DNA of 64,000 nt from Eledone cirrhosa (lineage: Eukaryota): assembly GCA_964016885.1 (NCBI GenBank), contig OZ024743.1, positions 236,220,001 to 236,284,000 on the forward strand. Reading direction: 5' to 3'. Position 1 is the stretch's first letter. Each line of letters starts with the position of its first letter. Both the position numbers and the translations under genes were made by a program. Below are positions 11,879 to 54,300 of the stretch, piece by piece. The notes beneath the pieces are model-generated. The model did not search any database, had not been told where the DNA came from, and saw only the letters and a program-made list of their open reading frames with translations.

Positions 11879-11916
11879 ATCTTCTGATGAAGGACTACCG
11901 TCCGAAACGTTAAGAC
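11879..11916 (+). ncRNA. Minimal type-I hammerhead ribozyme motif
   Basis: TCTT-CTGATGA-A-GGAC-TACC-GTCC-GAAA-CG-TT-AAGA; stem I TCTT/AAGA. Confidence 0.8.
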
Positions 11917-12230
11917 ACTTTTCCTACTATATGAAGCATTAAACTAATATATATCGCTCTCTTCTCTCGTTTTTACTCGGTGACTTTTCGGACATATGTA
12001 TATATATATATAAGTATGTATACGTACATGCATATATGTATACAGACGTACAGTAGTATGTATATATATATATATACATACATGCACACACATATATATA
12101 TATATATGTACGTATGGATTTACCGAACATTTATTATAATGCTCGGTGTGTTTGTAAACAAACATCCCGAATTAAGCCGTACAGTGTTTAGCAACCATCG
12201 TTGCTCTTTTGTTCAATACTGACAAAGGAA

Positions 12231-12271
12231 CGATGTACTAGTTTCAAGCTTATTAGCTATCGTCAGCACCG
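12231..12271 (-). ncRNA. Type-I hammerhead ribozyme motif
   Basis: Minus: CGGTG-CTGACGA-T-AGCT-AATA-AGCT-T-GAAA-CTAG-TA-CATCG; palindromic stem III ACTAGT. Confidence 0.8.
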
Positions 12272-12795
12272 TATGCCTTCGTGCCAGATGATTGAACGTC
12301 TGAAAGTATATACTTTCCTTATGCATATTAACGGCTGAGCAGCCTAATTTGCATATCGAGTGAGTTAATCGGCCGGGCGCACGGAAAACGATAAACGGAA
12401 AAAATGAAACGAAATTTCATTTCTCACTCTTAGTACGGCTGTTACTTAAATATAAGTATGTATACGTACATACATATATGTATACAGACGTACAGTAGTA
12501 TGTATACATACATGCACATATATATATATATATATATATATGTACGTATGGATTTACCGAAGATTTATTATAATGCTCGGTGTGTTTGTAAACAAACATC
12601 CCGAATTAAGCCGTACAGTGTTTAGCAACCATCGTTGCTCTTTTGTTTCATTTTTCGTTTCATTTTTTCCGTTTATCGTTTTCGGTGCGCCCGGCCGATT
12701 AACTCACTCGATATGCAAATTAGGCTGCTCAGCCGTTAATATGCATACGGAAAGTATATACTTTCAGACGTTCAATCATCTGGCAGGAAGGTATA

Positions 12796-12836
12796 CGGTG
12801 CTGACGATAGCTAATAAGCTTGAAACTAGTACAGCG
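12796..12836 (+). ncRNA. Type-I hammerhead ribozyme motif
   Basis: CGGTG-CTGACGA-TAGCTAATAAGCTT-GAAA-CTAG-TA-CAGCG. Confidence 0.75.
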
Positions 12837-13096
12837 TTCCTTTGTCAGTGTTGAACAAAAGAGCAACGATGGTTGCTAAACACTGTACAGCTTAATTCGG
12901 GATGTTTGTTTACAAACACACCGAGCATTATAATAAATGTTCGGTAAATCCATACGTACACATATATATGTGTGCATGTATGTATATATACATTCTACAG
13001 TACGTCTGTACACATATATGTATGTACGTATACATACTTATATTTAAGTAACAGCCATACTAAGAGTGAGAAATGAAATTTCGTTTCATTTTTTCC

Positions 13097-13135
<39 letters not shown>

Positions 13136-22346: not shown

Positions 22347-22348
<2 letters not shown>

Positions 22349-22428
22349 CGAAGGAAATGTGGTAAGGAACCAGGTGGTCCAGAATTAGCCGTCGAAACGG
22401 CTTGAGCTCAGCCGTAGGGGGTCTTACT

Positions 22429-22431
<3 letters not shown>
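22347..22431. mobile_element. 85-bp PLE mini-fragment between (TA)n tracts: element end joined to an inverted hammerhead 3' half
   Basis: AACGAAGGA..TGTGGTAAG (cf. 18377), then GAAA-CGGC-TTGAGCTCA-GCCG-TA-GGGGGTC. Confidence 0.65.
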
Positions 22432-22523
<92 letters not shown>

Positions 22524-22526
<3 letters not shown>

Positions 22527-23180
22527 GGAATAGAATGAAACGAAATTTCATTTCTCACTCTTAGTACGGCACTTACTTAAATGTAAGTATGTATGTATGT
22601 ATACGTACATACATATATGTATACAGACGTACAGTAGTATGTATATATATACATACATGCACACATATATATATATGCACGTATCGGTTTACCGAACATT
22701 TATTATAATGTGAACATTTATTATAATGTAGCTAATAAGCTTGAAACTAGTACATCGTTCTTGTGTCAGTGTTGAACAAAAAGGTGACGTGGTTGCCTAA
22801 ACATTGTACGGCGTAATTCGGGCTGTTTGTTTGTTTACAAACAAACAAACCGAGCATTATAATAAATGTTCGGTAAACCGATACGTGCATATATATATAT
22901 GTGTGCATGTATGTATATATATACATACTACTGTACGTCTGTATACATATATGTATGTACGTATACATACATACATACTTACATTTAAGTAAGTGCCGTA
23001 CTAAGAGTGAGAAATGAAATTTCGTTTCATTCTATTCCATTTATCGTTTTCGGTGCGCCCGGCCGACTGAACTCACTCGATATGCAAATTAGGCTGCTCA
23101 GCCGTTAATATGCATAAGGAAAGTATATACTTTCAGACGTTCAACCTTCTGGCAGGAAGTTATACGATGCTGACGATAGC
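22524..23180. mobile_element. Second locus of the ~445-bp hammerhead repeat: partial unit plus one inverted, permuted monomer
   Basis: 22524-22710 is inverted to ~22855-23042. 22729-23180 starts with TAGCTAATAAGCTTGAAACTAGTACATCG and ends with CGATGCTGACGATAGC. Confidence 0.85.
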
Positions 23181-24787
<1,607 letters not shown>

Positions 24788-24913
24788 ATGTGTGTGTGTG
24801 TGTATGTGTGTCTGGTGAATTTATGATAAATAGGTGAAACTCCTGAGTTACAAGACTCACTATTTATCCTTAATAAAAAAAAATATATATATATATATTC
24901 ACACACACATATA

Positions 24914-25252
24914 TTAGGTTGGGCTGAAAGTTCTCACCATTTTTTCAAATTTTTATTGATGTTGGCATCAAATTAATCACCATTAGCAGCGATTACCATC
25001 TGTCATCGTTTAGGAAGACATGATTCCATCCTTGTAGAACTCTTCTGGCTTCGATTCAAAGATTTTCTCAGCCACTGATTTAACTGGTCTTCATTGTGGA
25101 AGGTATTTGACTGGATTGCTCATTAAAAGGAAAAGGTGAGAGTCTGTAGGTGTGAGGTCGGGCAAATATGGTGGGTGGGGCAGAACCTCCCAATCTAGCT
25201 CCAGCAGCTTCTCGTGGGTCATCCTTGATGTATGCGGCCAAGCGTTACCACG
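24914..25252 (-). mobile_element. mariner transposon 3' fragment with one TIR
   Basis: Minus: NAWPHTS...KLLELDWEVLPHPPYLPDLTPTDSHLF (cf. mariner HPPYSPDLAPSD). TA|TTAGGTTGG TIR at 24914. Confidence 0.85.
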
Positions 25253-25854
25253 GAGGAATTAAACAGGACCACGACGTGAGTGCGTCTGAGAGATTTTCGT
25301 CTCTAATTTGTCAAGCTGTGGGCAATAATTGTCAGAGGTTATGTTGGTGTGCAATAGTGCCTCTTGAGTCAGTAAATATAGTCTTTACAAACCGTACAGA
25401 ACACAAATGTGGGGTCTATGTAGTTGACCATTTTAAATTGTGGACAACCTACGTTATTCCTATCTGCTGACCTACAGAATACACTATCTAGATAGGAGCT
25501 GAATGACCTAATGTGTTTGACCGTGTCCATACTAGCACATTCGAGAAGTCCAGACGGTACCAATCAGACAGTTGGAAACATCTAAGCAGGTTTGCGAGGA
25601 CTTTGTACCGTCCTTCACTAGTTTTTAGTCTCATACAGTCCCAGGATGCGTCTAAGATACTGTTCCAATCTTCTACTGAGTAGTTCCGATGGTATTTGTG
25701 TAACTCTTACTTTTGCCAATCTCTGGTCACAAATAGGATTAGATCTTCACTTTTCAGCTGAGTTGGATCTTTCCTCTGTGACAACCTCACACCATTCCAT
25801 ATCTCTTTCCTCGATCGATGTGGCTTTTGTGTTAATATTAATTATTGTTTTCTA

Positions 25855-26045
25855 AGGGCGGGGATTGGCAGTATCGGTAGAGGGTCGGACGCCATGCTTT
25901 GCAGCAAAGAGTTATGGCTTTTTATGGTCTAAGTTCAAATCCTGCCGCGGTTAACTTTGCCTTTCATCCTTACAGGGTCGATAAAATAAAGTACCAGTAA
26001 CACACTGGGGTAATTGCTGGCCTTGTGTCAAAAGTAGAAACAATT
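25855..26045 (+). mobile_element. Full-length SINE with 18-bp TSD
   Basis: ATTAATTATTGTTTTCTA at 25837-25854 and 26043-26060. Confidence 0.95.
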
Positions 26046-26109
26046 AATTATTGTTTTCTACCATAACAAGACCATTAATTTGGGGAATGGCGAAGACGAT
26101 CAAAGGAAA

Positions 26110-26768
26110 GTCGATTAAATCACCTCTAGTACTTTACTGGTTCTTTATTTTACCGAGACTAGGATAATGAAAGGTGAGGTTTATCTCCGAGGAATTTGAT
26201 TTCAGAACGTAAAGGGCCGCAACTATGTGCCGTGAAACATAACGCTGTACCGATACATCCAATAATAATTGTTTCTACTTTTGGCACAAGGCCAGCAATT
26301 ACCCCAGTGTATTACTGGTATTTTATTTTATCGACCCCGTAGGAATGAAAGGCAAAGTTAACCTCGACGGGATTTGAACTCAGACTGTAAAGGGACGTAA
26401 CTATGCTGGAAAGCATGGTGTCCAACCCTCTACCGATACTGCCAATTCCTCAACACTAAGATAATTGTTTCTACTTTTGGCACAAGGCCAGCAATTGTCC
26501 AGTACATTACTGGTACTTTATTTTATCGACCCCGTAAGGATGAAAGGCAAAATTGACCTCGGCGGGATTTGAACTCAGAATGGAAAGGGCCGTAACTCTA
26601 TGCGTCAAAGCAATACGTCCGACCCTTTACCGATACTGCCAATCCACCGCCCTACACTAAGATAATGAAAGGTGAAGTTGATCTCGGAGGAATTTAAACT
26701 CAGAACGTAAAGGGCCGCAACTCTGTGTCGTGAAACATAACGCTCTACCGATACATACAATAATAATA
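26110..26768 (-). mobile_element. Nested cluster of four SINE copies (two old partial, two young full-length)
   Basis: Young copies at ~26266-26450 and ~26463-26652 (TSD ACACTAAGATAAT at 26453 and 26654). Old segment 26158-26268 is similar to 26656-26767. Confidence 0.9.
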
Positions 26769-27365
26769 GAAGTCATCTCGGTAGAGTGGTTAGAAGTCAT
26801 CTCGGAATAAACAGCGCAAAGAAAGAAAGCACTTCACTTTGTATGTATATGGCTTCTAGAAAGTTGAACTTTTCTAGGTAACCATATTTAATAAAATATA
26901 TGAAAGATGTCTCCCCTGAGAAAACAGTGAGGTTAATATTAGCTTCAGGGTATCAAAGATGCTGGATTCTTAGTTTTTCGATTTCAGATAATAAAAGTAG
27001 TGAAATATTCTTCTGTTTTGTGAAAGAAACCTTAAGAAGGTTAGAATGGAGGTGATAAAGTATTTATCGCTCTTATATCTTGGAACTCCCCAATCGATTC
27101 TACAATTCGATTTACATTTTATGATTTCAGGTTATATTTTTTACTTTCTGACATATTTCTGGTGTCCTCGGTGATGTTTACCTGTGGAAAATATTCAAGT
27201 TTGTTGCCATAGTTTTCATAATTGGAAAATAAAGGTGAATATGACTCCGAGTGTCTAATGTCTGAAAGTTAGGTAAAGTTAAGACCAAGATACTAAGCTG
27301 TGTGTTGGCAGACCTGTTAGAGTTTAGCAGATGTCTGGCAGTATTCTACATCTCAGTACTCTACT

Positions 27366-30300
27366 CTGGGATATAGTGGGGTAAAGTTGGGTATAGTGGG
27401 GTATAGTGGGGTATAGTGGGTTAGTGTGGGGTATAGTGGGATATAGTGGGATATAGTGGGATGTAGAGGGGTATAGTGGGATATAGTGGGATACAGTAGG
27501 ATATAGTAGGATATAGTGGGGTATAGTGGGATATAGTGGGGCATAGTGGGGTATAGTGGGATATAGTGTGATATAGTGGGATATAGTGGGGTATAGTGAG
27601 ATATAGTGGACTATAGTGCGGTATAATGGCGTATAGTGGGATATAGTGGGATATAGTGGGATATAGTGGGGTATAGTGGGATATAGTGGGGTAGAGTGGG
27701 ATATAGTGGAGTATAGTGGGGTATAGTGGGGTATAGTGGGATATAGTGAGATAATGTGGGTAATAGTGGGATATAATTTTGTATAGTGGGATATAGTGGG
27801 GTATAGTCGGGTACAGTGGGGTATAGTGGGTTATAGTGGGATATAGTGGGATATAGTGGGATATAGTGGGGTATAGTGGGATATAGTGGGATATAGTGGG
27901 ATATAATGGGGTATAGTGGGATATAGTGGGATATAGTGGGATATAGTGGGATATAGTGGGACATAGTGAGATATAGTGGGATATAGTGAGATATAGTGGG
28001 ATATAGTGGGATATAGAGGGGTATAGGGGGATATAGTGGGATATAGTGGGGTATAGTGGGGAATAGTGGGATATAGTGGGGTGTAGTGGCATATAGTGGC
28101 ATATAGTGGCATATAGTGGGGTATAGTGGGATATAGTGGCGTACAGTGGCATATAGTGGTGTATAGTGGGATATAGTGGGATATAGTGGGGTATACTGGG
28201 GTATAGTGGGATTTAGTGGGATATAGTGGGATATAGGGGGTATAGTGGGGTATAGTGTGATATAGAGGGATATAGTGGAATATAGTGGGATATAGTGGTA
28301 TATAGTGGGGTATAGTGGGATATAGTGGGATATATTGGGGTATAGTGGAGTATAGTGGGGTATAGTGGATATAGTCGGGTATAGTGTGGTATAGAGGGAT
28401 ACAATAGGATATAGTGGGGTATTGTGGGATATAGTGGGATATACTGGTATATAGTGGGATATAGTGGTATATAATGGGATATGGTGGTATATAGTGGGAT
28501 ATAGTGATATATAGTGGGATATAATGGGATATATTGGGGTATAGTGGGGTGTATTGGGATATAGTGGGGTATAGTGGGATATAGTGGGCTATAGTGCGAT
28601 ATAGTGGGATATAGTGGGATATAGTGGGGTATAGTGGTGTATAGTGGTATAGAGTGGGGTATAGTGGTATATAGTGGGATATAGTGGGATATATTGGGGG
28701 ATAGTGGGGTGTAGTGGGATATAGTGGGGTATAGTGGGATATAGTGGGGTATAGTGTGGTATAGTGGGATATAGTGGGATATAGTGGGATATAGTGGGGT
28801 ATGGTGGGATATAGTGGGGTATAGTGGGATATGGTGCGAGATAGTGGGATATAGTGGGGTAAAGTGAGGTATAGTGGGTTATAGTGGGTTATAGTTGGAT
28901 ATAGGGGGGTATAATGGGATAAAGTGGGGTATATTGGGATATAGTGGGATATAGTGTGATATAGTGGGGTTATAGTGGGGAATAGTGGGATATAGTGGGG
29001 TGCTGTGGCATATAGTGTGGTATAGTGGGTTATAGTGGCATATAGTGGGGTATATTGGGATATAGTTGGATATAATCGGATATATTGGGGTATAGTTGCG
29101 TGTAGTGGGATATAGTGGGGTATAGTGGGATATAGTGTTATATAGTGGGGTATAGTGAGATATAGTGGTGTATACTGGGGTATAGTAGGATATAGTGGGG
29201 TATAGTGGGATATTGTGAGATATAGTGGGATATAGTGGAATATAGTGGGGTATAGTGGGTTATAGTGGGATATAGAGAGGTATAGTCGGATATAGTGGGA
29301 TATAGTGGGGTATAGTGGCATATAGTAAGAAATAGTGGGATATAGTGGGGTATAGTGGGGTATCGTGGGATATAGTGGGTACAGTGGGATATAGTGGGAT
29401 ATAATGTGATATAGTGGGATATAGTGGTGTACAGTGGGATATAATGGAAAATAGTGGGATATAGTGATGTATAGTGGGATATAGTGGGATATAGTGGGAT
29501 ATATTGGGGTATAGTGGCGTATAGTGGGGTATAGAGGGATTCAATAGGATATAGTGGGGTATTGTGGGATATATTGGGATATAGGGGTTTATAGTGTGAT
29601 ATTGTGATAGTGGGATATAGTGTTATATAGTGGGATATATTGAGATATAGTGGGATATAGTGGGATATAGTGCTATATAGTGAGGTATAGTGGGAGTATT
29701 GTGGGATATAGTAGGGCATAGTGCGTTATAGTGAGATATAGTGGGAGTATTGTGGGATATAGTAGGGCATAGTGGGATATAGTGAGATATAGTGGGGTAT
29801 GGTGGTGTATAGTGGGGTATTGTGGGATATAGTAGGATATAGTGTGATATAGTGGCGTATAGTGGGATATAGTGGGGGTATAGGGGCATAAAGTGACGTA
29901 TAATGGGATATATTGGGATATATTGGGGTATAGTGGGGTATAGTGGGTTATAGTGGGATATAGTCGGGTATAGTGTGATAATGTGGGATATAGTGGGATA
30001 TAGTGGCGTATAGTGAGGTATAGTGGGATATAGTGGGATATAGTGGGATATAGTGGGATATAGTGAGATATAGTGGGATATAGTGGGATATGGTGCGATA
30101 TAGTGGGATATAGTGGGGTATAGTGGTGTATAGTGGGATATAGTGGGGTATAGTCGGGTACAGTGGGGTATAGTGGGTTATAGTGGGATATAGTGGGATA
30201 TAGTGGGATATAGTGGGGTATAGTGGGATATAGTGGGATATAGTGGGATATAGTGGGGTATAGTGGGATATAGTGGGATATAGTGAGATATAGTGGGATA

Positions 30301-33300
30301 TAGTGGGACATAGTGAGATATAGTGGGATATAGTGAGATATAGTGGGATATAGTGGGATATAGAGGGGTATAGGGGGATATAGTGGGATATAGTGGGGTA
30401 TAGTGGGGAATAGTGGGATATAGTGGGGTATAGTGGCATATAGTGGCATATAGTGGCATATAGTGGGGTATAGTGGGATATAGTGGCGTACAGTGGGATA
30501 TAGTGGTGTATAGTGGGATATAGTGTTATATAGTGGGGTATACTGGGGTATAGTGGGATTTAGTGGGATATAGTGGGATATAGGGGGTATAGTGGGGTAT
30601 AGTGTGATATAGAGGGATATAGTGGAATATAGTGGGATATAGTGGTATATAGTGGGGTATAGTGGGATATAGTGGGATATATTGGGGTATAGTGGAGTAT
30701 AGTGGGGTATAGTGGATATAGTCGGGTATAGTGTGGTATAGAGGGATACAATAGGATATAGTGGGGTATTGTGGGATATAGTGGGATATACTGGTATATA
30801 GTGGGATATAGTGGTATATAATGGGATATGGTGGTATATAGTGGGATATAGTGATATATAGTGGGATATAATGGGATATATTGGGGTATAGTGGGGTGTA
30901 TTGGGATATAGTGGGGTATAGTGGGATATAGTGGGCTATAGTGCGATATAGTGGGATATAGTGGGATATAGTGGGGTATAGTGGTGTATAGTGGTATAGA
31001 GTGGGGTATAGTGGTATATAGTGGGATATAGTGGGATATATTGGGGGATAGTGGGGTGTAGTGGGATATAGTGGGGTATAGTGGGATATAGTGGGGTATA
31101 GTGTGGTATAGTGGGATATAGTGGGATATAGTGGGATATAGTGGGGTATGGTGGGATATAGTGGGGTATAGTGGGATATGGTGCGATATAGTGGGATATA
31201 GTGGGGTAAAGTGAGGTATAGTGGGTTATAGTGGGTTATAGTTGGATATAGGGGGGTATAATGGGATAAAGTGGGGTATATTGGGATATAGTGGGATATA
31301 GTGTGATATAGTGGGGTTATAGTGGGGAATAGTGGGATATAGTGGGGTGCTGTGGCATATAGTGTGGTATAGTGGGGTATAGTGGCATATAGTGGGGTAT
31401 ATTGGGATATAGTTGGATATAATCGGATATATTGGGGTATAGTTGCGTGTAGTGGGATATAGTGGGGTATAGTGGGATATAGTGTTATATAGTGGGGTAT
31501 AGTGAGATATAGTGGTGTATACTGGGGTATAGTAGGATATAGTGGGGTATAGTGGGATATTGTGAGATATAGTGGGATATAGTGGAATATAGTGGGGTAT
31601 AGTGGGTTATAGTGGGATATAGTGTGGTATAGTGGGATATAGAGAGGTATAGTCGGATATAGTGGGATATAGTGGGGTATAGTGGCATATAGTAAGAAAT
31701 AGTGGGATATAGTGGGGTATAGTGGGGTATCGTGGGATATAGTGGGTACAGTGGGATATAGTGGGATATAATGTGATATAGTGGGATATAGTGGTGTACA
31801 GTGGGATATAATGGAAAATAGTGGGATATAGTGATGTATAGTGGGATATAGTGGGATATAGTGGGATATATTGGGGTATAGTGGCGTATAGTGGGGTATA
31901 GAGGGATTTAATAGGATATAGTGGGGTATTGTGGGATATATTGGGATATAGGGGTTTATAGTGTGATATTGTGATAGTGGGATATAGTGTTATATAGTGG
32001 GATATAGTGAGATATAGTGGGGTATGTTGGTGTATAGTGGGGTATTGTGGGATATAGTAGGATATAGTGTGATATAGTGGCGTATAGTGGGATATAGTGG
32101 GGGTATAGGGGCATAAAGTGACGTATAATGGGATATATTGGGATATATTGGGGTATAGTGGGGTATAGTGGGTTATAGTGGGATATAGTCGGGTATAGTG
32201 TGATAATGTGGGATATAGTGGGATATAGTGGCGTATAGTGAGGTATAGTGGGATATAGTGGGATATAGTGGGATATAGTGGGATATAGTGAGATATAGTG
32301 GGATATAGTGGGATATGGTGCGATATAGTGGGATATAGTGGGGTATAGTGGTGTATAGTGGGATATAGTGGGGTATAGTGGTATATAGTGGGATATAGTG
32401 GGATATAGTCGGATATAGTGCGATATAGTGGGGAATAGTGGTGTATAGTGGGATATAGTGGGGTATAGTGCGATATAGTGGGGAATAGTGGTGTATAGTT
32501 GGATATAGTGGGGTATAGTGGGTTATAGTGGGTTATAGTGGGATATAGTGGGGTATAATGGGATAAAGTGGGGGTATATTGGGATATAGCAGGATATAGT
32601 GGGGTATAGTGGGGTATAGTGGGGTGTATTGGGATATAGTGGGATATAGTGGGATATAGTGGGGTATAGTCGGATAAATTGGGGTTATAGTGGGTTATAG
32701 TTGGATATATTTGGGTATAATGGGATAAAGTGGGGTATTTTGGGATATAGTGGGGTTATAGTGGGGATTAGTGGGATATAGTGGAGTGCTGTGGCATATA
32801 GTCTGGTATAGTGGGGTATAGTGGCATATAGTGGGGTATATTGGGATATAGTAGGATATAGTCGGATATATTGGGGTATAGTTGCGTGTAGTGGGATATA
32901 GTGGGCTATAGTGGGATATAGTGTTATATAGTGGTGTATACTGGGTATAGTAGGATATAGTGGGGTATAGTGGGATATAGTGAGATATAGTGGGATATAG
33001 TGGAATATAGTGGTGTATAGTAGGTTATAGTGGGATGTAGTGTGCTATAGTGGGATATAGAGAGGTATAGTCGGATATAGTGGGATATAGTGGGGTATAG
33101 TGGCATATAGTGGGAAATAGTGGGATATAGTGGGGTTTAGTGGGGTATCGTGGGATATAGCGGGGACAGTGGGATATAGTGGGACATAATGTGATATAGT
33201 GGGATATAGTGGTGTACAGTGGGATATAATGAGAAATAGTGGGATATAGTCAGGTATAGTGGGATATAGTGGGATATAGTGGGATATATTTGGGTATAGT

Positions 33301-36300
33301 GGGGTATAGTGGGGTACAGAGTGATTCAATAGGATATAGTGGTGTATTGTGGGACATATTGGGATATGGGGGTATATAGTGTGATATAGTGATAGTGGGA
33401 TATAGTGTTATATAGTGGGATATATTGAGATATAGTGGGATATAGTGGGATATAGTGGGATATAGTGGGATATAGTGGAGTATAGTAGGTATAGTGGTGT
33501 ATAGTGGGATATAGTGGGATATAATGGGATATATTGGGGTATAGTTGCGTGTAGTGGGATATAGTGGGGTATAGTGGGATATAGTGGGTTATAGTGGGGT
33601 ATAGTGGAATATAGTGGGTTATACTGGGGTATAGTAGGATATAGTGGGGTATAGTGGGATATAGTGAGATATAGTGGGATATAGTGGAGTATAGTAGGGT
33701 ATAGTTTTTTATAGTGGGATATAGTCGGGTATAGTGGGATATAGAGGAGTATAGTCGGAAATAGTGGGATATGGTGGGGGTATAGTGGTGTATAATGGCA
33801 TATAGTGGGAAATAGTGGGATATAGTGGCGTATAGTGGGCTAAAGTGGGAAATAGTGGGGTACAGTGGGATATAGTGGGATACAGTGTGATATAGTGGGA
33901 TATAGTGGTGTACAGTGGGATATAGTGGGAAATAGTGTGGTATAGTGGGGTATAGAGGGATATGGTGGGATATAGTGGGATATAGTGGGGTTAGAGTGGG
34001 GTATACTGGGTTATTATGGGATATAGTGGGGTATAGTCGGATAAATTGGGGTATAGTGGCATATATTGGGATATAGTGGGATATAGTGGGATATAATGGG
34101 ATATAGTGGGGTATTCTGGGGTATATTGTGATATAGTGGGGTATAGTGGTATATAGTGTGGTATAGTGGGATATAGTGGGGTATAGTGCGATAGAGTTGG
34201 ATATAGTGGGATATGGTGGGATATATTGGGGTATAGTGGGATATAGTGGGTTAAAATGGGGTATAGTGGTATATAGTGCTGTATATTGGGATATAGTGGG
34301 ATATCGTGGGATATAGTGCGGTATAGTGGGAAATAGTGGGATATAGTGGCGTATAGTGGGGTAAAGTGGGAAATAGTGGGGTACAGTGGGATATAGTGGG
34401 ATATAGTGTGATATAGTGGGATATAGTGGTGTACAGTGGGATATAGTGGGAAATAGTGGGATATAGTGGGGTATAATGGGATATAGTGGGATATAGTGGG
34501 ATATAGTGGGATATATTGGGGTATAGTGGTGTATAGTGGGGTATAGTGGAATATAGTGGGATGTAATGGTATATAGTAGGATATAGTGGGGTATAATGGG
34601 ATATAGTGGGGTATAGTGGGATATAGTGGGGCATAGAGGGATATAGGTGGGATATAGTGGGGTATAGTGGGATATAGTGGGATATAGTGGGATATAGTGC
34701 GATATAGTGGGATATAGTTGGATATAGTGGGATATAGTGGGATATAGTGGGATATAGTTGGGTATAATGGCGTATAGTGGGATATAGTGGGATATAGTGT
34801 AATATAGTGGGGTACAGTGGTGTATCGTGGAATATAGTAGGGTATAGTGGTATATAGTGGTATATAGTGGGATATATTCGGGTATAGTGGGGTGTAGTGG
34901 GATATAGAGGGATATGGTGGGATATAGTGGGATATAGTGGGGTTAGAGTGGGGTATACTGGGTTATTATGGGATATAGTGGGGTATAGTCGGATAAATTG
35001 GCGTATAGTGGCATATATGGGGATATAGTGGGATATAGTGGGATATAATGGGATATAGTGGGGTATACTGGGGTATAGTGTGATATAGTGGGGTATAGTG
35101 GTATATAGTGTGGTATAGTGGGATATAGTGGCGTATAGTGCGATATAGTTAGATATAGTGGGATATGGTTGGATATATTGGGGTATAGTGGGGTATAGTG
35201 GGTTATAATGGGGTATAGTGATATATAGTGCTGTATATTGAGATATAGTGGGATATAGTGGGATATAATGCGGTATAGTGGGGAATAGTGGGATATAGTG
35301 GGGTCTAGTGGCATATAGTGGGATATGTGGGGTATAGTGGGATATAGTGGGATATAGTCTGATATAGTGTGGTATAGTGGGATATAGTGGGATATAGTGG
35401 GATATAGTGTTATATAGTGGGATATATTGAAATATAGTGGGATACAGTGGTATATAGTGGAATATAGTGGGATATAGTGGGGGGGGGGTTATAGTGGGAT
35501 ATAGTGGGGTATTGTGGGATATAGTGGGGTATAGGGATGTATAGTGGGGTATAGTGTGATATAGTGGGATATAGTAGGATATAGTGGGATATAGTGGAAT
35601 ATAGTGGGATATAGTGGACTATATTGGTGTATAGTGGGATATATAGGGTATAGTAGGATATAGCTGGGTATAATAGGATATAGTGCGATATAGTGGGATA
35701 TAGTGGGGTATAGTGGGGAATACTGGGATATAGTGGGCTATTTTGGCAGATAGTGGGATATAGTGGTGTGTAGTGGCATATAGTGGGGTTTAGTTGAATA
35801 TAGTAGGGTATAGTGGGGTATAGTGGTATTTAGTGGGATATAGTGGGATATAGTGGGATATTGTGGGGTTTAGATGGGTATTTTGGGATATAGGGGGATA
35901 TAATGGGGTATAGTGGAGTATAGTGGGATATAGGTGGGATCTAGTGCCGTATAGTGGGATATAGTGTGGGATAGTGGGATATAGTTGAGTATATTGGGGT
36001 ATAGTGGGGTATAGTGGGACATAGGTGGATATAGTAGGATATAGTGGGGTACAGTTGGCTATAGTATGATATAGTGGGATATAGTGGGATATAGTGAGAT
36101 ATAGTGTGGTATAGTGGCATATAGTGTGATTTAGTGTGATATATTGGGATATAGTGGGTGTATAGTGTGATATAGTGTTATATAGTGGGATATAGTGGGA
36201 TATAGTGGTGTATAGTGGGATATAGTGGGATATAATGGGATATAGTGGGATATAGTAGGATATAGTGTGGTATAGTGGGGTATAGTAGGATATAGTGGGA

Positions 36301-38115
36301 TATAGTTCGATATAGTGAGATATAGCGGGATATAGTGGGGTATATTAAGGTATAGTAGGGTATAGTGGGATATTATGTGATATAGTGGGATATAGTGGGG
36401 GTATAGTGAGGTATAGTGGGGTATAGTGGGATATAGTGGGATACAGTGGGATATAGTGGGATATTATGGGGTATAGTGGTGTATAGTGGGATATAGTAGG
36501 GCATAGTGGGATATAGTGGGGTATAGTGGTATTTAGTGGGGTATAGAGAGATATATTGGGGTATAGTGGGGTATAGTGTGGTATAGTGGGTATAGTGGGA
36601 TATAGTGGGATATAGTGGGGAATAGTGGGATATAGTGGGGTATAGTGGCCTATAGTGGGATATGTGGGGTATAGTGGCATATAGTGGGATATAGTGGGGT
36701 TTAGATGGATATTATGGGATATAGGGGGATATAATGGGGTATAGTGGTGTATAGTGGGATATAGGTGGGATATAGTGCTGTATAGTGGGATATAGTGTGG
36801 GATAGTGGGATATAGTGGAGTATATTGGGGTATAGTGGGGTATAGTGGGATATAGGGAGATATAGTAGGATATAGTGGGGTATAGTGGGGTATAGTATGA
36901 TATAGTGGGATATAGAGTGATATAGTGAGATATAGTGTGGTATAGTGGGATATAGTGTGATTTAGTGCGATATATTGGGATATAGTGGGGTATAGTGTGA
37001 TATAGTGTGATATAGTGTGATATAGTGGGATATAGTGGTGTATAGTGGGATATAGTGGGATATAATGGGATACAGTGGGATATAGTGGGATATAGTGTGG
37101 TATAGTGGGGTATAGTGGGATATAGTTGGATATAGTGCGATATAGTGAGATATAGTGGGATATAGTGGGGTATAGTGTGGTATAGTAGGGTATAGTGGGA
37201 TATAGTGGGATATAGTGGGATATATTGGGGTGTAGTGGGATATAGTGGGGTATAGTGTGAAAAGTGTGATATAGTGGGGTATAATGGGGTATAGTGTGAT
37301 ATAGTGGGATATAGTGGGATATAGTGGGGGTATAGTGGGATACAGTGGAATATAATGGGATATAATGGGATATAGTGGGATATAGTGGGATATAGTGGGG
37401 TATAGTGGTATATAGTGGGATATTATGGGATATAGTGGGATATAGTGGGGGTATAGTGAGGTATAGTGGGGTGTAGTGGGATATAGTGGGATACAGTGGG
37501 ATATAGTGGGATATAGTTGGATATAGTGGGGTATAGTGGTGTATAGTGGGATATAGTGGGATATAGTGGGATATAGTGGGATATAGTGGCGTACAATCGA
37601 ATATAGTGGGATATAGTGGGCTACAGTGGTATATAGTGGGATATAGTGGGGTGTATAGTGGCATATAGTGGTATATAGTGGGGTATTGTGGGATATAGTG
37701 GGATATAGTAGGGTACAATGGGATATAGTGGGATATAGTGGCATTTAGTGGGATATAGTGGGATATAGTGGGATATAGTGGGATATAGTGGGATATAGTG
37801 GTATATAGTGGAATATAGTCGGGTATAGTGGGATATTTTGGGATATAGTGGGATATAATGGGCTATAGTGGAGTATAGTGTTATATAGTGGGATATAGTG
37901 GGATATAGTGGAGTATAGTGGGAGATAGTGGGATATAGTGGGTCATAGTGGGATATAGTGGCGTAAATGGGATATAGTGGTATATGGTGGGGTATAGTGT
38001 GGTATAGTGGGATATAGTGGACTATAGTGGGATATAGTGGGGTATAGTGGCGTATAGTGGCTTATAGTGGGATATAGTAATGTATAGTGAGATATAGTGG
38101 TGTATAGTGGGGTAT
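27366..38115. repeat. 10-bp satellite, consensus TATAGTGGG(A/G), ~10.7 kb
   Basis: Direct reading; about 1070 units by length; source of the PLYPTISHY junk ORFs. Confidence 0.98.
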
Positions 38116-38389
38116 ACTATGCCATTGACACAATATATGTCTAGTTTCTGTTTTATTTCTTCTTTAGAATCTCTGAAGTTGAGAGTAAGAAATCAATGTA
38201 AACAAAGACTGTAGTCGAAGGTGGACTGTTGCTTATCTAGGATCAACTATCACGTGTCTCTACATTATCTACACTTTACTAAGTTCACTTAGTTAATATA
38301 GATCGATATTGAAATCAATCAATTAGTAAGTAGGATTGTTTTAAAGTAAAAATTGTATAAATGCCAGCAATCCTACCCCAGAACTTGTG

Positions 38390-39385
38390 AAATATAACAG
38401 CGGTGAACACATTACTATATATGGAAGAAATATAACAGCGGTGAACACATTACTATATATGGAAGAAATATAACAGCGGTGAACACATTACCATATATGG
38501 GGGAAATATGACAGCGGTGAACACATTACCATATATGGGGGAAATATAACAGCGGTGAACACATTACCATATATGGGGGAAATATAACAGCGGTGAACAC
38601 ATTACCATATATGGGGGAAATATGACAGCGGTGAACACATTACCATATATGGGGGAAATATAACAGCGGTGAACACATTACCATATATGGGGGAAATATA
38701 ACAGCGGTGAACACATTACCATATATGGGGGAAATATAACAGCGGTGAACACATTACCATATATGGGGGAAATATAACAGCGGTGAACACATTACCATAT
38801 ATGGGGGAAATATAACAGCGGTGAACACATTACCATATATGGGGGAAATATAACAGCGGTGAACACATTACCATATATGGGGGAAATATAACAGCGGTGA
38901 ACACATTACCATATATGGGGGAAATATAACAGCGGTGAACACATTACCATATATGGGGGAAATATGACAGCGGTGAACACATTACCATATATGGGGGAAA
39001 TATAACAGCGGTGAACACATTACCATATATGGAAGAAATATAACAGCGGTGAACACATTACCATATATGGAAGAAATATAACAGCGGTGAACACATTACT
39101 ATATATGGAAGAAATATAACAGCGGTGAACACATTACCATATATGGGGGAAATATGACAGCGGTGAACACATTACCATATATGGGAGAAATATAACAGTT
39201 GTGAATACATTACCATATATGGAAGAAATATAACAGCGGTGAACACATTACCATATATGGAAGAAATATAACAGCAGTGAACACATTACCATATATGGGG
39301 GAAATATAACAGTTGTGAATACATTACCATATATGGAAGAAATATAACAGCGGTGAGCACATTACCATATATGGAAGAAATATAT
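38390..39385. repeat. 38-bp minisatellite (AAATATAACAGCGGTGAACACATTACCATATATGGGGG), ~26 units
   Basis: Period 38 (38581 to 38619); no spacers. Confidence 0.97.
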
Positions 39386-45090: not shown

Positions 45091-45376
45091 TTATTGCATA
45101 CAAAATGTCTTGAGGTTTTTAGATATTTTTACACATCCATTAATGGACTGCACTTGAAAATTCCTAATTAGCTGTGATCTTTCTGTTTCTGTCAACATTC
45201 TCAAGATTTGTACTGAGGCAGTAACATATTCACGGACCCCAATAATCACAGGTACAAATCTAAAGACATATTCAAGGTGAACTCTCTGCAGATTCCTCAT
45301 TAATTCCGCATAGATATTCTCCTTCTCACTACTTTATAACAATATATTTACATCTGTTGGACAGTTGATAGCTACT
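45091..45376 (-). mobile_element. R4/Dong-like RLE C-terminal fragment, contiguous with the 46-bp satellite
   Basis: Minus: VAINCPTDVNILL*SSEKENIYAELMRNLQRVHLEYVFRFVPVIIG...ERSQLI..Q...I.G.VKI.K; homologous to 1953-2250. Confidence 0.8.
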
Positions 45377-48300
45377 ACTTTATAACAATATATTTACATC
45401 TGCTGGACAGTTAGTTGATAGCTACTACTTTATAACAATATATTTACATCTGTTGGACAGTTGATAGCTACTACTTTATAACAATATATTTACATCTGTT
45501 GGACAGTTGATAGCTACTACTTTATAACAATATATTTCCATCTGCTGGACAGTTGATAGCTCCTACTTTATAACAATATATTTACATCTGCTGGACAGTT
45601 GATAGCTACTACTTTATAACAATATATTTACATCTGCTGGACAGTTGATAGCTACTACTTCATAACAATATATTTCCATCTGCTGGACAGTTGATAGCTA
45701 CTACTGTATAACAATATATTTACATCTGCTGGACAGCAGATAGCTACTACTTTATAACAATATATTTACATCTGTTGGGCAACTGATAACGACTACTTTA
45801 TAACAATATATTTACATCTGTTGGGGAGTTGATAGCCACTATTTTATAACAATATATTTACATCTGTTGGGGAGTTGATAGCCACTACTTTATAACAATA
45901 TATTTCCATCTGTTGGACAGTTGATAGCCACTACTTTATAAAAATATATTTCCATCTGCTGGACAGTTGATAGCTACTACATTATAACAATATATTTACA
46001 TCTGCTGGACAGCTGATAGCTACTACTTTATAACAATATATTTACATCCGTTGGGGAGTTGATAGCCACTACTTTATAACAATATATTTCTATCTGCTGG
46101 ACAGTTGATAGCCACTACTTTATAACAATATATTTACATCTGCTGGACAGTTGATAGCCACTACTTTATAACAATATATTTACATCTGCTGGACAGCTGA
46201 TAGCTACTACTTTATAACAATAAATTTACATCTGCTGGACAGCTGATAGCTACTACTTTATAACAATATATTTACATCTGTTGGGGAGTTGATAGCTACT
46301 ACTTTATAACAATATATTTACATCTGTTGGGGAGTTGATAGCCACTACGTTATAACAATATATTTACATCTGTTGGACAGTTGATAGCCACTATTTTATA
46401 ACAATATATTTACATCTGCTGGACAGTTGATAGCTACTACTTTATAACAATATATTTCCATCTGTTGGGGAGTTGATAGCTACTACTTTATAGCAATATA
46501 TTTCCATCTGCTGGACAGTTGATAGCTACGACTTTATAACAATATATTTACATCTGCTGGACAGTTGATAGCCACTACTTTATAACAATATATTTCCATC
46601 TGCTGGACAGTTGATAGCCACTAATTTATAACAATATATTTACATCTGCTGGACAGTTGATAGCTACTACTTTATAACAATATATTTCCATCTGCTGGAC
46701 AGTTGATAGCCACTACTTTATAACAATATATTTCCATCTGCTGGACAGTTGATAGCCACTACTTTATAACAATATATTTACATCTGCTGGACAGTTGATA
46801 GCCACTACTTTATAACAATATATTTCCATCTGCTGAACAGTTGATAGCCACTACTTTATAACAATATATTTACATCTGCTGGACAGTTGATAGCCACTAC
46901 TTTATAACAATATATTTACATCTGCTGGACAGTTGATAGCCACTACTTTATAACAATATATTTACATCTGCTGGACAGTTGATAGCCACTACTTTATAAC
47001 AATATATTTACATCTGCTGGACAGTTGATAGCCACTACTTTATAACAATATATTTACATCTGCTGGACAGTTGATAGCCACTACTTTATAACAATATATT
47101 TACATCTGCTGGACAGTTGATAGCCACTACTTTATAACAATATATTTACATCTGCTGGACAGTTGATAGCTACTAATTTATAACAATATATTTACATCTG
47201 CTGGACAGTTGATAGCTACTACTTTATAACAATATATTTACATCTGCTGGACAGTTGATAGCCACTACTTTATAACAATATATTTACATCTGCTGGACAG
47301 TTGATAGCCACTACTTTATAACAATATATTTACATCTGCTGGACAGTTGATAGCCACTACTTTATAACAATATATTTACATCTGCTGGACAGTTGATAGC
47401 CACTACTTTATAACAATATATTTACATCTGCTGGACAGTTGATAGCCACTACTTTATAACAATATATTTACATCTGCTGGACAGTTGATAGCCACTACTT
47501 TATAACAATATATTTACATCTGCTGGACAGTTGATAGCCACTACTTTATAACAATATATTTACATCTGCTGGACAGTTGATAGCTACTAATTTATAACAA
47601 TATATTTACATCTGCTGGACAGTTGATAGCTACTACTTTATAACAATATATTTACATCTGCTGGACAGTTGATAGCCACTACTTTAAAACAATATATTTA
47701 CATCTGCTGGACAGTTGATAGCCACTACTTTATAACAATATATTTACATCTGCTGGACAGTTGATAGCCACTAATTTATAACAATATATTTACATCTGCT
47801 GGACAGGTGATAGCTACTACTTTATAACAATATATTTACATCTGCTGGACAGCTGATAGCTACTACTTTATAACAATATATTTACATCTGCTGGACAGCT
47901 GATAGCTACTACTTTATAACAATATATTTACATCTGTTGGGGAGTTGATAGCTACTACTTTATAACAATATATTTACATCTGTTGGGGAGTTGATAGCCA
48001 CTACGTTATAACAATATATTTACATCTGTTGGACAGTTGATAGCCACTACTTTATAACAATATATTTACATCTGCTGGACAGTTGATAGCTACTACTTTA
48101 TAACAATATATTTCCATCTGTTGGGGAGTTGATAGCTACTACTTTATAGCAATATATTTCCATCTGCTGGACAGTTGATAGCTACGACTTTATAACAATA
48201 TATTTACATCTGCTGGACAGTTGATAGCCACTACTTTATAACAATATATTTCCATCTGCTGGACAGTTGATAGCCACTAATTTATAACAATATATTTACA

Positions 48301-51300
48301 TCTGCTGGACAGTTGATAGCTACTACTTTATAACAATATATTTCCATCTGCTGGACAGTTGATAGCCACTACTTTATAACAATATATTTCCATCTGCTGG
48401 ACAGTTGATAGCTACTACTTTATAACAATATATTTACATCTGCTGGACAGTTGATAGCCAATACTTTATAACAATATATTCCCGTCTGCTGGACAGTTGA
48501 TAGCCACTACTTTATAACAATATATTTACATCTGCTGGACAGTTGATAGCCACTAATTTATAACAATATATTTACATCGGGTGGACAGTTGATAGCTACT
48601 ATTTTATAACAATATATTTCCATCTGCTGGACAGTTGATAGCCACTACTTTATAACAATATATTCCCGTCTGCTGGACAGTTGATAGCCACTACTTTATA
48701 ACAATATATTTACATCTGCTGGACAGTTGATAGCCACTAATTTATAACAATATATTTACATCTGCTGGACAGTTGATAGCTACTACTTTATAACAATATA
48801 TTTCCATCTGCTGGACAGTTGATAGCCACTACTTTATAACAATATATTTACATCTGCTGGACAGTTGATAGCCACTACTTTATAACAATATATTTACATC
48901 TGCTGGACAGTTGATAGCTACTACTTTATAACAATATATTTACATCTGCTGGACAGTTGATAGCTAATAATTTATAACAATATATTTACATCTGCTGGAC
49001 AGTTGATAGCCACTACTTTATAACAATATATTTACATCTGCTGGACAGTTGATAGCCACTACTTTATAACAATATATTTACATCTGCTGGACAGTTGATA
49101 GCCACTACTTTATAACAAGATATTTACATCTGCTGGACAGTTGATAGCCACTACTTTTTAACAATATATTTCAATCTGCTGGACAGTTGATAGCTACTAC
49201 TTTATAACAATATATTTACATCTGCTGGACAGCTGATAGCTACTACTTTATAACAATATATTTACATCCGTTGGGGAGTTGATAGCCACTACTTTATAAC
49301 GATATATTAACATCTGTTGGGGAGTTGATAGCCACTACTTTATAACAATATATTTACATCTGTTGGACAGTTGATAGCCACTACATTATAACAATATATT
49401 TACATCTGTTGGGGAGTTGATAGCCACTACTTTATAACAATATATTTACATCTGCTGGACAGTTGATAGCCACTACTTTATAACAATATATTTCCATCTG
49501 TTGGACAGTTGATAGCCACTACATTATAACAATATATTTCCATCTGCTGGACAGTTGATAGCTACTACTTTATAACAATATATTTACATCTGCTGGACAG
49601 CTGATAGCTACTACTTTATAACGATATATTTACATCCGTTGGGGAGTTGATAGCCACTACTTTATAACAATATATTTACATCTGCTGGACAGTTGATAGC
49701 CACTATTTTATAACAATATATCTACATCTGCTGGACAGCTGATAGCTACTACTTTATAACAATATATTTACATCTGTTGGACAGTTGATAGCCACTACTT
49801 TATAACAATATATTTCCATCTGCTGGACAGTTGATAGCCACTAATTTATAACAATATATTTACATCTGCTGGACAGTTGATAGCTACTACTTTATAACAA
49901 TATATTTCCATCTGCTGGACAGTTGATAGCCACTACTTTATAACAATATATTTCCATCTGCTGAACAGTTGATAGCCACTACTTTATAACAATATATTTA
50001 CATCTGCTGGACAGTTGATAGCCACTACTTTATAACAATATATTTCCATCTGATGGACAGTTGATAGCCACTACTTTATAACAATATATTTACATCTGCT
50101 GGACAGTTGATAGCCACTACTTTATAACAATATATTTACATCTGCTGGACAGTTGATAGCCACTACTTTATAACAATATATTCCCGTCTGCTGGACAGTT
50201 GATAGCCACTACTTTATAACAATATATTTACATCTGCTGGACAGTTGATAGCCACTAATTTATAACAATATATTTACATCTGCTGGACAGTAGATAGCTA
50301 CTACTTTATAACAATATATTTCCATCTGCTGGACAGTTGATAGCCACTACTTTATAACAATATATTTACATCTGCTGGACAGTTGATAGCCACTACTTTA
50401 TAACAATATATTTACATCTGCTGGACAGTTGGTAGCCACTACTTTATAACAATATATTTACATCTGCTGGACAGTTGATAATCACTATTTTATAACAATA
50501 TATTTACATCTGCTGGACAGTTGATAGCCACTACTTTATAACAATATATTTACATCTGCTGGACAGTTGATAGCCACTACTTTATAACAATATATTTCCA
50601 TCTGCTGGACAGTTGATAGCCACTACTTTATAACAATATATTTACATCTGCTGGACAGTTGATAGCCACTACTTTATAACAATATATTTACATCTGCTGG
50701 ACAGTTGATAGCCACTACTTTATAACAATATATTTACATCTGCTGGACAGTTGATAGCCACTAATTTATAACAATATATTTACATCTGCTGGACAGTTGA
50801 TAGCTACTACTTTATAACAATATATTTACATCTGCTGGACAGTTGATAGCTACTACTTTATAACAATATATTTACATCTGCTGGACAGTTGATAGCCACT
50901 ACTTTATAACAATATATTTACATCTGCTGGACAGTTGATAGCCACTACATTATAACAATATATTTCCATCTGCTGAACAGTTGATAGCCACTACTTTATA
51001 ACAATATATTTACATCTGCTGGACAGTTGATAGCCACTACTTTATAACAATATATTTACATCTGCTGGACAGTTGATAGCCACTACTTTATAACAATATA
51101 TTTCCATCTGCTGAACAGTTGATAGCCACTACTTTATAACAATATATTTACATCTGTTGGACAGTTGATAGCTACTACTTTATAACAATATATTTACATC
51201 TGCTGGACAGTTGATAGCCACTACTTTATAACAATATATTTACATCTGCTGGACAGTTGATAGCCACTACTTTATAACAATATATTTACATCTGCTGGAC

Positions 51301-54300
51301 AGTTGATAGCTACTACTTTATAACTATATATTTACATCTGCTGGACAGTTGATAGCTACTACTTTATAACAATATATTTACATCTTCTGGACAGTTGATA
51401 GCCACTACTTTATAACAATATATTTACATCTGCTGGACAGTTGATAGCCACTACTTTATAACAATATATTTCCATCTGCTGGACAGTTGATAGCCACTAC
51501 TTTATAACAATATATTTACATCTGCTGGACAGTTGATAGCCACTACTTTATAACAATATATTTACATCTGCTGGACAGTTGATAGCCACTACTTTATAAC
51601 AATATATTTACATCTGCTGGACAGTTGATAGCCACTACTTTATAACAATATATTTCCATCTGCTGGACAGTTGATAGCCACTACTTTATAACAATATATT
51701 TACATCTGCTGGACAGTTGATAGCCACTACTTTATAACAATATATGTACATCTGCTGGACAGTTGATAGCCACTACTTTATAACAATATATTTCCATCTG
51801 CTGGACAGTTGATAGCTACTACTTTACTTTATAACAATATATTTCCATCTGCTGGACAGTTGATAGCTACTACTTTATAACAATATATTTCCATCTGCTG
51901 GACAGTTGATAGCTACTACTTTATAACAATATATTTCCATCTGCTGGACAGTTGATAGCTACTACTTTATAACAATATATTTCCATCTGCTGGACAGTTA
52001 GTTGATAGCTACTACTTTATAACAATATATTTACATCTGTTGGACAGTTGATAGCTACTACTTTATAACAATCTATTTACATCTGTTGGACAGATGATAG
52101 CTACTACTTTATAACAATATATTTACATCTGCTGGACAGCAGATAGCTACTACTTTATAACAATATATTTACATCTGTTGGGCAACGGATAACGACTACT
52201 TTATAAGAAAATATTTACATCTGTTGCGGAGTGGATAGCCACTACTTTATAACAATATATTTACATCTGTTGGACAGTCGATAGCCACAATATTATAACA
52301 ATATATTTACATCTGTTGGGGAGTTGATAGCCACTACTTTATAACAATATATTTACATCTGTTGGGGAGTTGATAGCCACTACTTTATAACAATATATTT
52401 ACATCCGTTGGGGAGTTGATAACCACTACTTTATAACAATATATTTACATCTGCTGGACAGTTGATAGCCACTACTTTATAACAATATATTTCCATCTGC
52501 TGGACAGCTGATAGCCACTACTTTATAACAATATATTTACATCTGCTGGACAGTTGATAGCCACTACTTTATAACAATATATTTACATCAGCTGGACAGT
52601 TGATAGCTACTACTTTATAACAATATATTTACATCTGCTGGACAGTTGATAGCTACTACTTTATAACAATATATTTACATCTGCTGGACAGTTGATAGCC
52701 ACTACTTTATAACAATATATTTACATCTGCTGGACAGTTGATAGCCACTACTTTATAACAATATATTTACATCTGCTGGACAGTTGATAGCAACTACTTT
52801 ATAACAATATATTTACATCTGCTGGACAGTTGATAGCTACTACTTTATAACAATATATTTACATCTACTGGACAGTTGATAGCCACTACTTTATAACAAT
52901 ATATTTACATCTGCTGGACAGTTGTTAGCCACTACTTTATAACAATATATTTACATCTGCTGGACAGTTGATAGCCACTACTTTATAACAATATATTTAC
53001 ATCTGCTGGACAGTTCATAGCTACTACTTTATAACAATATATTTACATCTGCTGGACAGTTGATAGCTACTACTTTATAACAATATATTTACATCTGTTG
53101 GACAGTTGATAGCTACTACTTTATAACAATATATTTACATCTGCTGGACAGTTGATAGCCACTACTTTATAACAATATATTTACATCTGCTGGACAGTTG
53201 ATAGCTACTACTTTATAACAATATATTTACATCTGCTGGACAGTTGATAGCTACTACTTTATAACAATATATTTACAGCTGCTGGACAGTTGGTAGCCAC
53301 TACTTTATAACAATATATTTACATCTGCTGGACAGTTGATAGCCACTACTTTATAACAATATATTTCCATCTGCTGGACAGTTGATAGCCACTACTTTAT
53401 AATAATATATTTACATATGCTGGACAGTTGATAGCCACTACTTTATAACAATATATTTACATCTGCTGGACAGTTGATAGCGACTACTTTATAACAATAT
53501 ATTTACATCGGCTGGACAGTTGATAGCCACTACTTTATAACAATATATTTCCATCTGCTGGACAGTTAATAGCCACTACTTTATAACAATATATTTACAT
53601 CTGCTGGATAGTTGATAGGCACTACTTTATAACAATATATTTACATCTGCTGGACAGTTGATAGCCACTACTTTATAACAATATATTTCCATCTGCTGTA
53701 CAGTTGATAGCTACTACTTTATAACAATATATTTACATCTGCTGGACAGTTGATAGCTAATACTTTATAACAATATATTTCCATCTGCTGGACAGTTGAT
53801 AGCTACTACTTTATAACAATATATTTCCATCTGCTGGACAGTTAGTTGATAGCTACTACTTTATAACAATATATTTACATCTGTTGGACAGTTGATAGCT
53901 ACTACTTTATAACAATCTATTTACATCTGTTGGACAGTTGATAGCTACTACTTTATAACAATATATTTACATCTGCTGGACAGCAGATAGCTACTAATTT
54001 ATAACAATATATTTACATCTGTTGGGCAACTGATAACGACTACTTCATAAGAATAGATTTACATCTGTTGCGGAGTTGATAGCCAATACTTTATAACAAT
54101 ATATTTACATCTGTTGGACAGTCGATAGCCACTACATTATAACAATATATTTACATCTGTTGGGGAGTTGATAGCCCCTACTTTATAACAATATATTTAC
54201 ATCTGTTGGGGAGTTGATAGCCACTACTTTATAACAATATATTTACATCCGTTGGAGAGTTGATAGCCACTACTTTATAACAATATATTTACATCTTTTG

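Follow-up and report, generated by a model that had tools for sequence, protein, structure and literature searches.

A one-unit hammerhead repeat in Eledone cirrhosa is one arm of a head-to-head retrozyme insertion with Penelope-like ends

Results

Anatomy of the Locus

The window analyzed here is a 64,000-nucleotide stretch of the Eledone cirrhosa genome (assembly GCA_964016885.1, contig OZ024743.1, positions 236,220,001 to 236,284,000 of the forward strand). Features are listed in Table 1. Unit positions are numbered from window position 22729 (unit 1) and counted round the repeat of the 448-bp family.

The segment 22729-23180 had been described in an earlier note as a 448-bp unit opened inside a hammerhead ribozyme with TAGC repeated at its ends, and the sequence, 452 bp in all, bears this out. 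The same note took the segment for a lone circularly permuted monomer, overlooking a minus-strand copy at 22524-22710 that corresponds to unit 127-313 and is 100% identical to the segment over that length. Together the two copies form a head-to-head insertion, with the segment as right arm and the minus-strand copy as left arm; the left arm runs out into a (TA)n tract, and a short tandem duplication marks the place where the arms meet. Position 22729 is thus the arm-to-arm junction, and 23180 is the join to a 5'-truncated Penelope remnant. Taken alone, the right arm is an ordinary copy. Reads of three reduced-representation DNA runs from other samples cover 23183-23218 at a depth of 2-9, which suggests that the junction at 23180 is not an assembly artefact; no read bridging it was found among the records listed for these runs.

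The window contains a second head-to-head insertion of the same family. Its minus arm (12007-12647) runs from unit 47 to unit 259 over 1.46 units and its plus arm (12653-13102) from unit 292 to unit 316 over 1.06 units. Just left of the minus arm, at 11886-11915, lies a further minimal hammerhead motif (CTGATGA...GAAAC), probably the end of a different Penelope-like element (PLE) family. At 22348-22430 there is a short, TA-flanked, hairpin-rich element, which by eye resembles the second commonest family of TA-flanked ends in the fetched loci (133 ends) and is probably a further non-autonomous derivative of a PLE. Periods of 10, 38, and 46 bp characterize the large tandem arrays at 27367-38116, 38389-39384, and 45327-64000.

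Table 1. Positions of the features discussed (window coordinates unless a locus is named)
Feature	Position	Strand	Basis
Second head-to-head insertion of the 448-bp family, (TA)n at both ends	12007..13102	.	
(TA)47 microsatellite, left target flank	22431..22524	.	
Left retrozyme arm, covering unit 127 to about 314-316, where it reaches the far fixed 3' site; matches the right arm identically over 187 bp	22521..22710	-	
18-bp tandem duplication at the head-to-head arm junction	22694..22729	.	
Right arm, 448-bp unit plus 4 bp; begins at the arm junction and has an off-rule 3' end; carries 4 private substitutions	22729..23180	+	
Type I hammerhead, 3' half: stem II (U.U at base), GAAA, palindromic minimal stem III ACTAGT, stem I strand CATCG	22729..22757	+	sequence
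Hairpin with the near fixed 3' end (unit about 259) in its loop; putative RT start site 1	22978..22993	+	end mapping and folding
Hairpin plus CATTTAT up to the far fixed 3' end (unit 316); putative RT start site 2	23007..23044	+	end mapping and folding
Hammerhead, 5' half: CGATG, CTGACGA core, repeated TAGC	23165..23180	+	sequence
Older Penelope-like remnant, 5'-truncated at 23181, then (TA)n	23181..24670	+	
466-bp sister family	L107:2184-2736; L292-L411 (unit from L329)		

A High-copy Hammerhead Repeat

With its ends joined, the segment reads CGATG CTGACGA TAGC TAATAA GCTT GAAA CTAG TA/CATCG (the slash marks the predicted cleavage site), a type I hammerhead in which stem I is CGATG/CATCG, the base of stem II carries U.U, and stem III is minimal and palindromic. 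The reconstruction of the ribozyme proposed in the earlier note agrees with the family sequence. Exact matches to a 33-nt core spanning the join number at least 9,643 genome-wide, with none for the reversed control; natural tandem units measure 420-453 bp, narrowing to 441-450 bp among the copies closest to this one; and 1,645 reads of DNA run X21 pass over the unit join. The joined form is therefore the normal sequence of the 448-bp family. The unit is also present in sequencing runs X4-X9, assigned to several other organism codes, of which X4 and X5 carry related subfamily variants, and locus L091 displays an alternating two-unit pattern.

In the stem I pair 439/27, pairing is kept as A-T 113, T-G 77, and G-T 43 (233/244), and the non-majority rate in the hammerhead core is 0.012, against 0.055 elsewhere in the unit. 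By this covariation and the lower variability of the core, the hammerhead stem is judged to be real at the family level. The unit had no Rfam match at the gathering score; a weak match to Hammerhead_HH9 (17.6 bits, E 0.043) lies under the cut-off of 52 for that model. Folding of the hammerhead in a short window was not significant (z 0.0), and the whole unit is strongly self-paired (z -7.4 linear, -7.7 circular). The U.U at the base of stem II is as in HHR_Amex2, and the very short palindromic stem III is as in axolotl HHR_Amex1, by analogy with which the ribozyme would probably need dimers and cleave poorly (PMC7229834).

The right arm runs through the predicted cleavage site GTA/C at 22752/22753, as the earlier note had read it, and the same holds family-wide for 223 of the 228 arms that reach the site. 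A cleaved linear monomer is therefore excluded as the template. No 3' end falls at the predicted cleavage site (0/319 arms), and 8 5' ends fall at unit 25-30 against 4.3 expected (p=0.07). On the features examined, the 448-bp family is a non-LTR retrozyme for which self-cleavage and a circle are predicted.

Two Fixed 3' Ends

Ends were mapped from 792 BLAST segments in 209 loci. Filtering took out 421 hits to microsatellite alone and 14 others of low complexity, together with 15 edge-cut segments and the duplicates produced by overlapping loci, and left 319 arms. The arms are a non-random sample made up of best hits and first matches on contig C1, one set having been chosen by its end at unit 316. 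Among the 178 arms not chosen by end, 147 have fixed 3' ends, against 7.8% expected: 72 stop at unit 305-318 and 75 at unit 244-264. A (TA)n tract follows directly after 131 of these 147 on-rule ends. Exact matching genome-wide found 1,975 copies that stop into TA at unit 316, where 2,227 continue, and 2,008 TA-tailed stops at unit 259. The two sites are 57 nt apart, so that unit 259-316 forms a 57-nt tail. The near site falls in the loop of a hairpin and the far site just past a second hairpin.

Head-to-head pairs numbered 95 in 192 loci, and each arm of a pair almost always uses one site and its partner the other. By 3' ends, 68 pairs were 316/259, none 316/316, and 3 259/259, while 24 contained an off-rule end; mixed ends are thus found in 68/71 on-rule pairs and, in unselected pairs, in 28/31 (p=2e-6). 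The 5' ends of the 190 paired arms are scattered and fit a uniform distribution (p=0.29), and the target junctions have a TA-like overlap of 2-4 nt.

Arms longer than one unit are common (130/319), 15/319 extend to two units or more, arrays of 2-5 units are present, and the longest arms make as many as 4-5 turns. The length of exactly one unit, to which the earlier note had attached meaning, has no peak: 5/319 arms measure 0.98-1.02 units, against 15 at 0.90-0.98 and 17 at 1.02-1.10, and a departure of no more than 4 nt from unit length has a chance density of ~1% per arm. That note had named scattered ends together with enrichment of unit length as support and fixed ends in other copies as a refutation; the 5' ends are scattered, but the 3' ends are fixed and the enrichment is absent. 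Its conclusion that a circular or multimeric RNA was reverse transcribed nevertheless stands, on the read-through and the arms exceeding one unit, whereas its argument from a permuted copy of unit length fails.

The Neighboring Penelope Remnant

The Penelope-like remnant beyond 23180 is truncated at its 5' end, as its relatives extend further upstream. The copy is broken, with internal deletions near 23991 and 24556, and retains a DKG motif and a minimal hammerhead motif at 24531-24555. Its relatives have a YIDD motif and a weak GIY-YIG match (E 0.015, below cut-off). Private changes are about five times more frequent in the remnant (29/830 columns) than in the retrozyme (4/635 columns, p=1e-4), and by this measure the remnant came first and is a neighbor that arose in a separate event. 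The microhomology at the join is at most 1 nt. No retrozyme 16-mers occur in 24671-27300 beyond the remnant. An array interrupted by a later PLE insertion, another refuting case named in the earlier note, is thus unsupported, given that nothing continues past 24670 and that the remnant appears older. A propagated retrozyme-Penelope chimera was also considered and rejected, because the junction has one match in the genome, at this locus alone.

Clustering of TA-flanked ends and a profile search found no autonomous partner PLE sharing the tail or the hammerhead in ~1 Mb of fetched loci. Two open stretches (L262:785-2719, minus strand, and L266:1921-3408, of 645 and 496 amino acids) encode an RT-like YVDD; they belong to a family that differs from the PLE in the window and represent a candidate helper.

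A Younger Sister Family

The profile search turned up a younger retrozyme family of 466 bp that is identical to the 448-bp family in 288/477 columns and has at least 2,164 copies with an exact far end. It has the same hairpins and follows the same two-end rule, 41/47 pairs being mixed, 1 far/far, and 5 off-rule. Unit length shows no peak here either (0/96); a hint of unit length in 26 preselected sister loci was gone in 70 end-anchored loci.

Variants were counted in 96 sister insertions, with one DNA-amplified array excluded. Rare variants present on all turns of an insertion are A>G in 38/67 cases and single-turn variants in 22/260; the ratio A>G:T>C is 38:5 in the former class and 22:25 in the latter. 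Partly shared variants (n=15) include two A>G. The shared A>G variants fall in 18/96 insertions, clustered in few loci, and 17 of the sites span both arms. In locus L384, six rare A>G changes occur on each covering turn of both arms. A 32-nt stretch of this haplotype has four exact matches in the genome, all of them within the L384 insertion and on both arms. Loci L394 and L384 gained their A>G changes in a nested fashion.

These genomic footprints suggest that L384 and the shared A>G changes are best explained by one edited circle copied repeatedly from both primers. Independent editing of a linear multimer is disfavored, because the A>G excess is not seen in the single-turn and partial classes. 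The source of the changes may be ADAR, although no clear neighbor or pairing preference of that enzyme was found at the sister A>G sites, and a donor of the private haplotypes may be missing from the assembly. Some insertions (L321, L325, and L383) have mixed units, as multimers or template switching would give. Overall, a monomeric circle is well supported as the template of the sister family.

Sister 5' ends are enriched in the tail between the two start sites (L342-L411), for near arms in 11/30 (p=0.003) and for far arms in 15/63 (p=0.04), as may be expected if the RT stalls at an occupied tail. Locus L323-L324 (G000:C1:375634000-375644000) holds ~19 sister units in 3- and 4-unit higher-order repeats and is a DNA-level amplification that followed insertion.

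Discussion

Insertion of the Retrozyme

The reading that we favor, with a probability of about 0.72, is that 22729-23180 belongs, as the right arm, to a head-to-head insertion of a high-copy hammerhead repeat, a non-LTR retrozyme; that the insertion was made by a Penelope-like RT/endonuclease, which would have started at two fixed internal sites on an RNA that was circular or uncleaved; and that the length of one unit would be an accident of truncation beside an older Penelope remnant. Known PLEs leave inverted copies, have a tail on one side, and are biased toward (TA)n targets (PMC8557442). In an anole PLE, two internal RT start sites set the tail and both strands are extended; this element uses uncleaved RNA in vitro, and its start sites have no strand difference in the data described (PMC11167929). 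By analogy, the anatomy of the arms suggests PLE-type priming from both ends of a break, at one site each. The RNA would be primed at unit 316 by one end of a break in (TA)n and at unit 259 by the other; each cDNA would be extended with strand displacement and halt at a random point, and the two cDNA ends would then be joined head to head.

At the locus itself the left arm fits the rule with its end at 316, and the partner arm is therefore expected to end at 259. The right arm instead runs beyond 259 and terminates at unit 4 of the following turn. Off-rule ends of this kind occur in roughly one pair in four, and several of them are plain internal deletions. The right arm may first have ended at 259 of its second turn (at least 707 nt) and lost that end by deletion into the Penelope remnant, or it may have been primed off-rule on a resected end; trimming of a longer arm into the older neighbor or off-rule priming may be the simplest history. 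Because the right arm meets the older remnant at 23180 in an off-rule join, the length of exactly one monomer is probably due to chance, which the density of ~1% per arm makes plausible in a family of about ten thousand.

Circle or Multimer

For the 448-bp family a monomeric circle is, in our estimation, the probable template. Turns within one insertion differ by 3.5%, against 8.5% between loci, and subfamily diagnostic alleles match between adjacent turns in 349/394 cases. Common non-CpG polymorphisms are A/G in 19 cases versus C/T in 4 (p=0.003). Within-locus identity was rejected as a test in this older family, as it does not separate a circle from a multimer, and RNA junction reads cannot discriminate either, because the unit junction exists in DNA.

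The same Penelope-type insertion could have used a linear, uncleaved multimer produced by transcription of homogeneous arrays in the genome, with no circle involved, and we regard this alternative as possible but rather unlikely. It would draw on the arrays of 2-5 units, on the minimal stem III, which by the analogy with HHR_Amex1 is probably dimer-dependent and a poor cleaver (PMC7229834), and on the activity of the anole PLE on unprocessed RNA (PMC11167929). In keeping with it, the rare variants of the 448-bp family lack the shared A>G excess (5/32; A>G:T>C 5:6; p=0.07). A multimer, however, must carry the new subfamily alleles in every unit to produce the observed agreement between turns, which a monomeric circle would give free, and in the 60%-identical sister family private haplotypes extend over all turns, and the assembly contains no donor for them.

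With the monomeric circle as template, a more extended model can be formulated, toward which we lean only slightly. A Penelope RT dimer would prime both ends of a (TA)n break on one circular RNA at two structurally defined sites and carry out rolling-circle reverse transcription; A-to-I edits would enter every turn of both arms, and host RNA editing would in this way drive the evolution of retrozyme subfamilies.

Other Explanations

The copies might instead be 5'-truncated ends (pLTRs) of an autonomous PLE and no separate non-autonomous element. Xenopus retrozymes are described as close to pLTRs (bioRxiv 10.64898/2026.07.22.740005), and the insertion anatomy is PLE-like. Against this, arms circle the unit as many as 4-5 times, the 129 solo arms have no evident shared sequence upstream that lies outside the unit, and no ORF-linked homolog was found; we consider the proposal improbable.

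Equally improbable is a single chimeric event, in which a PLE RT copied PLE RNA for 1.5 kb before changing template to retrozyme RNA at 23180, after which the product was joined to the left arm. The two parts do share one orientation and a direct junction that is unique in the genome, with (TA)n on both outer sides and no retrozyme sequence past 24670. The excess of private changes in the PLE speaks against a common origin in time, no near-identical PLE donor with the same deletions was present among the best-scored 40 matches of three sequence searches (78-96%), and none of the listed off-rule 3' ends could be recognized by eye as a join to the PLE of the window.

Least probable, and already largely refuted, is an RT primed at 23180 that made one exact round of a 448-nt circle and halted at its own start, with unit length as a mechanistic outcome: the length of 448+4 fits it, at a chance density of about 1% per arm, but unit length has no peak in either family (5/319 and 0/96), several turns of RT are common, 23180 is not a family start site (2/178 ends at unit 1-10), and the left arm is left unaccounted for.

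Comparison with Known Elements

In L1 twin priming, two primers at one break yield an inverted 5' part of the element. The insertions described here differ in having no poly(A) and no TSD, in that both arms start at fixed internal sites, and in that the arms overlap in sequence and exceed one unit.

PLEs are closer: they also have an inverted 5'-truncated copy beside the main copy, a tail at one end, and (TA)n or AT-rich targets (Craig et al. 2021, PMC8557442). The repeat differs from them in its apparent lack of an ORF and in its longer tail, which measures 57 nt in the 448-bp family and about 70 nt in the sister, against 30-40. The anole Poseidon PAc studied in vitro shares the two internal RT starts downstream of the hammerhead and the read-through of the cleavage site (Frangieh et al. 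2024, PMC11167929). In the insertions analyzed here, in contrast, the two ends hardly ever share a site, while the in vitro data are described as free of any strand difference.

The animal non-LTR retrozymes of Cervera and de la Pena (2020, PMC7229834) are non-coding units of a few hundred bp that carry a single type I hammerhead. The 448-bp family, apparently non-coding as well, shares this plan, along with a copy number in the thousands, tandem repetition of the unit, low GC, strong self-pairing, and the co-occurrence of PLEs. The 448-bp family differs from them in consisting mostly of dispersed arms of 0.1-2 units, arranged head to head, with two fixed ends and few long arrays. Insertion anatomy, which is mapped here, is absent from the available text of that account. 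Vertebrate non-LTR retrozymes are likewise dispersed monomers with rarer multimers, and a PLE origin is proposed for them on the basis of co-occurrence and pLTR phylogeny; the accessible part of that preprint leaves the mechanism open and contains neither end mapping nor a test of the template (bioRxiv 10.64898/2026.07.22.740005). In the openly accessible main-text literature we found no published end mapping of retrozymes and no edited circle as a template.

Copying from a circle with a PLE as helper was put forward for retrozymes as a hypothesis (PMC7229834). In the sources available, the return of animal retrozymes to the genome with a circle as template has had that standing so far (PMC7229834; bioRxiv 10.64898/2026.07.22.740005). 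The insertions described here display a Penelope signature at retrozyme ends at scale. Identical A>G changes on all turns and both arms provide a test for a circular template that uses the genome only and can be applied to any assembly, and the rule that the two arms use different start sites constrains the mechanism of PLEs beyond the single in vitro study.
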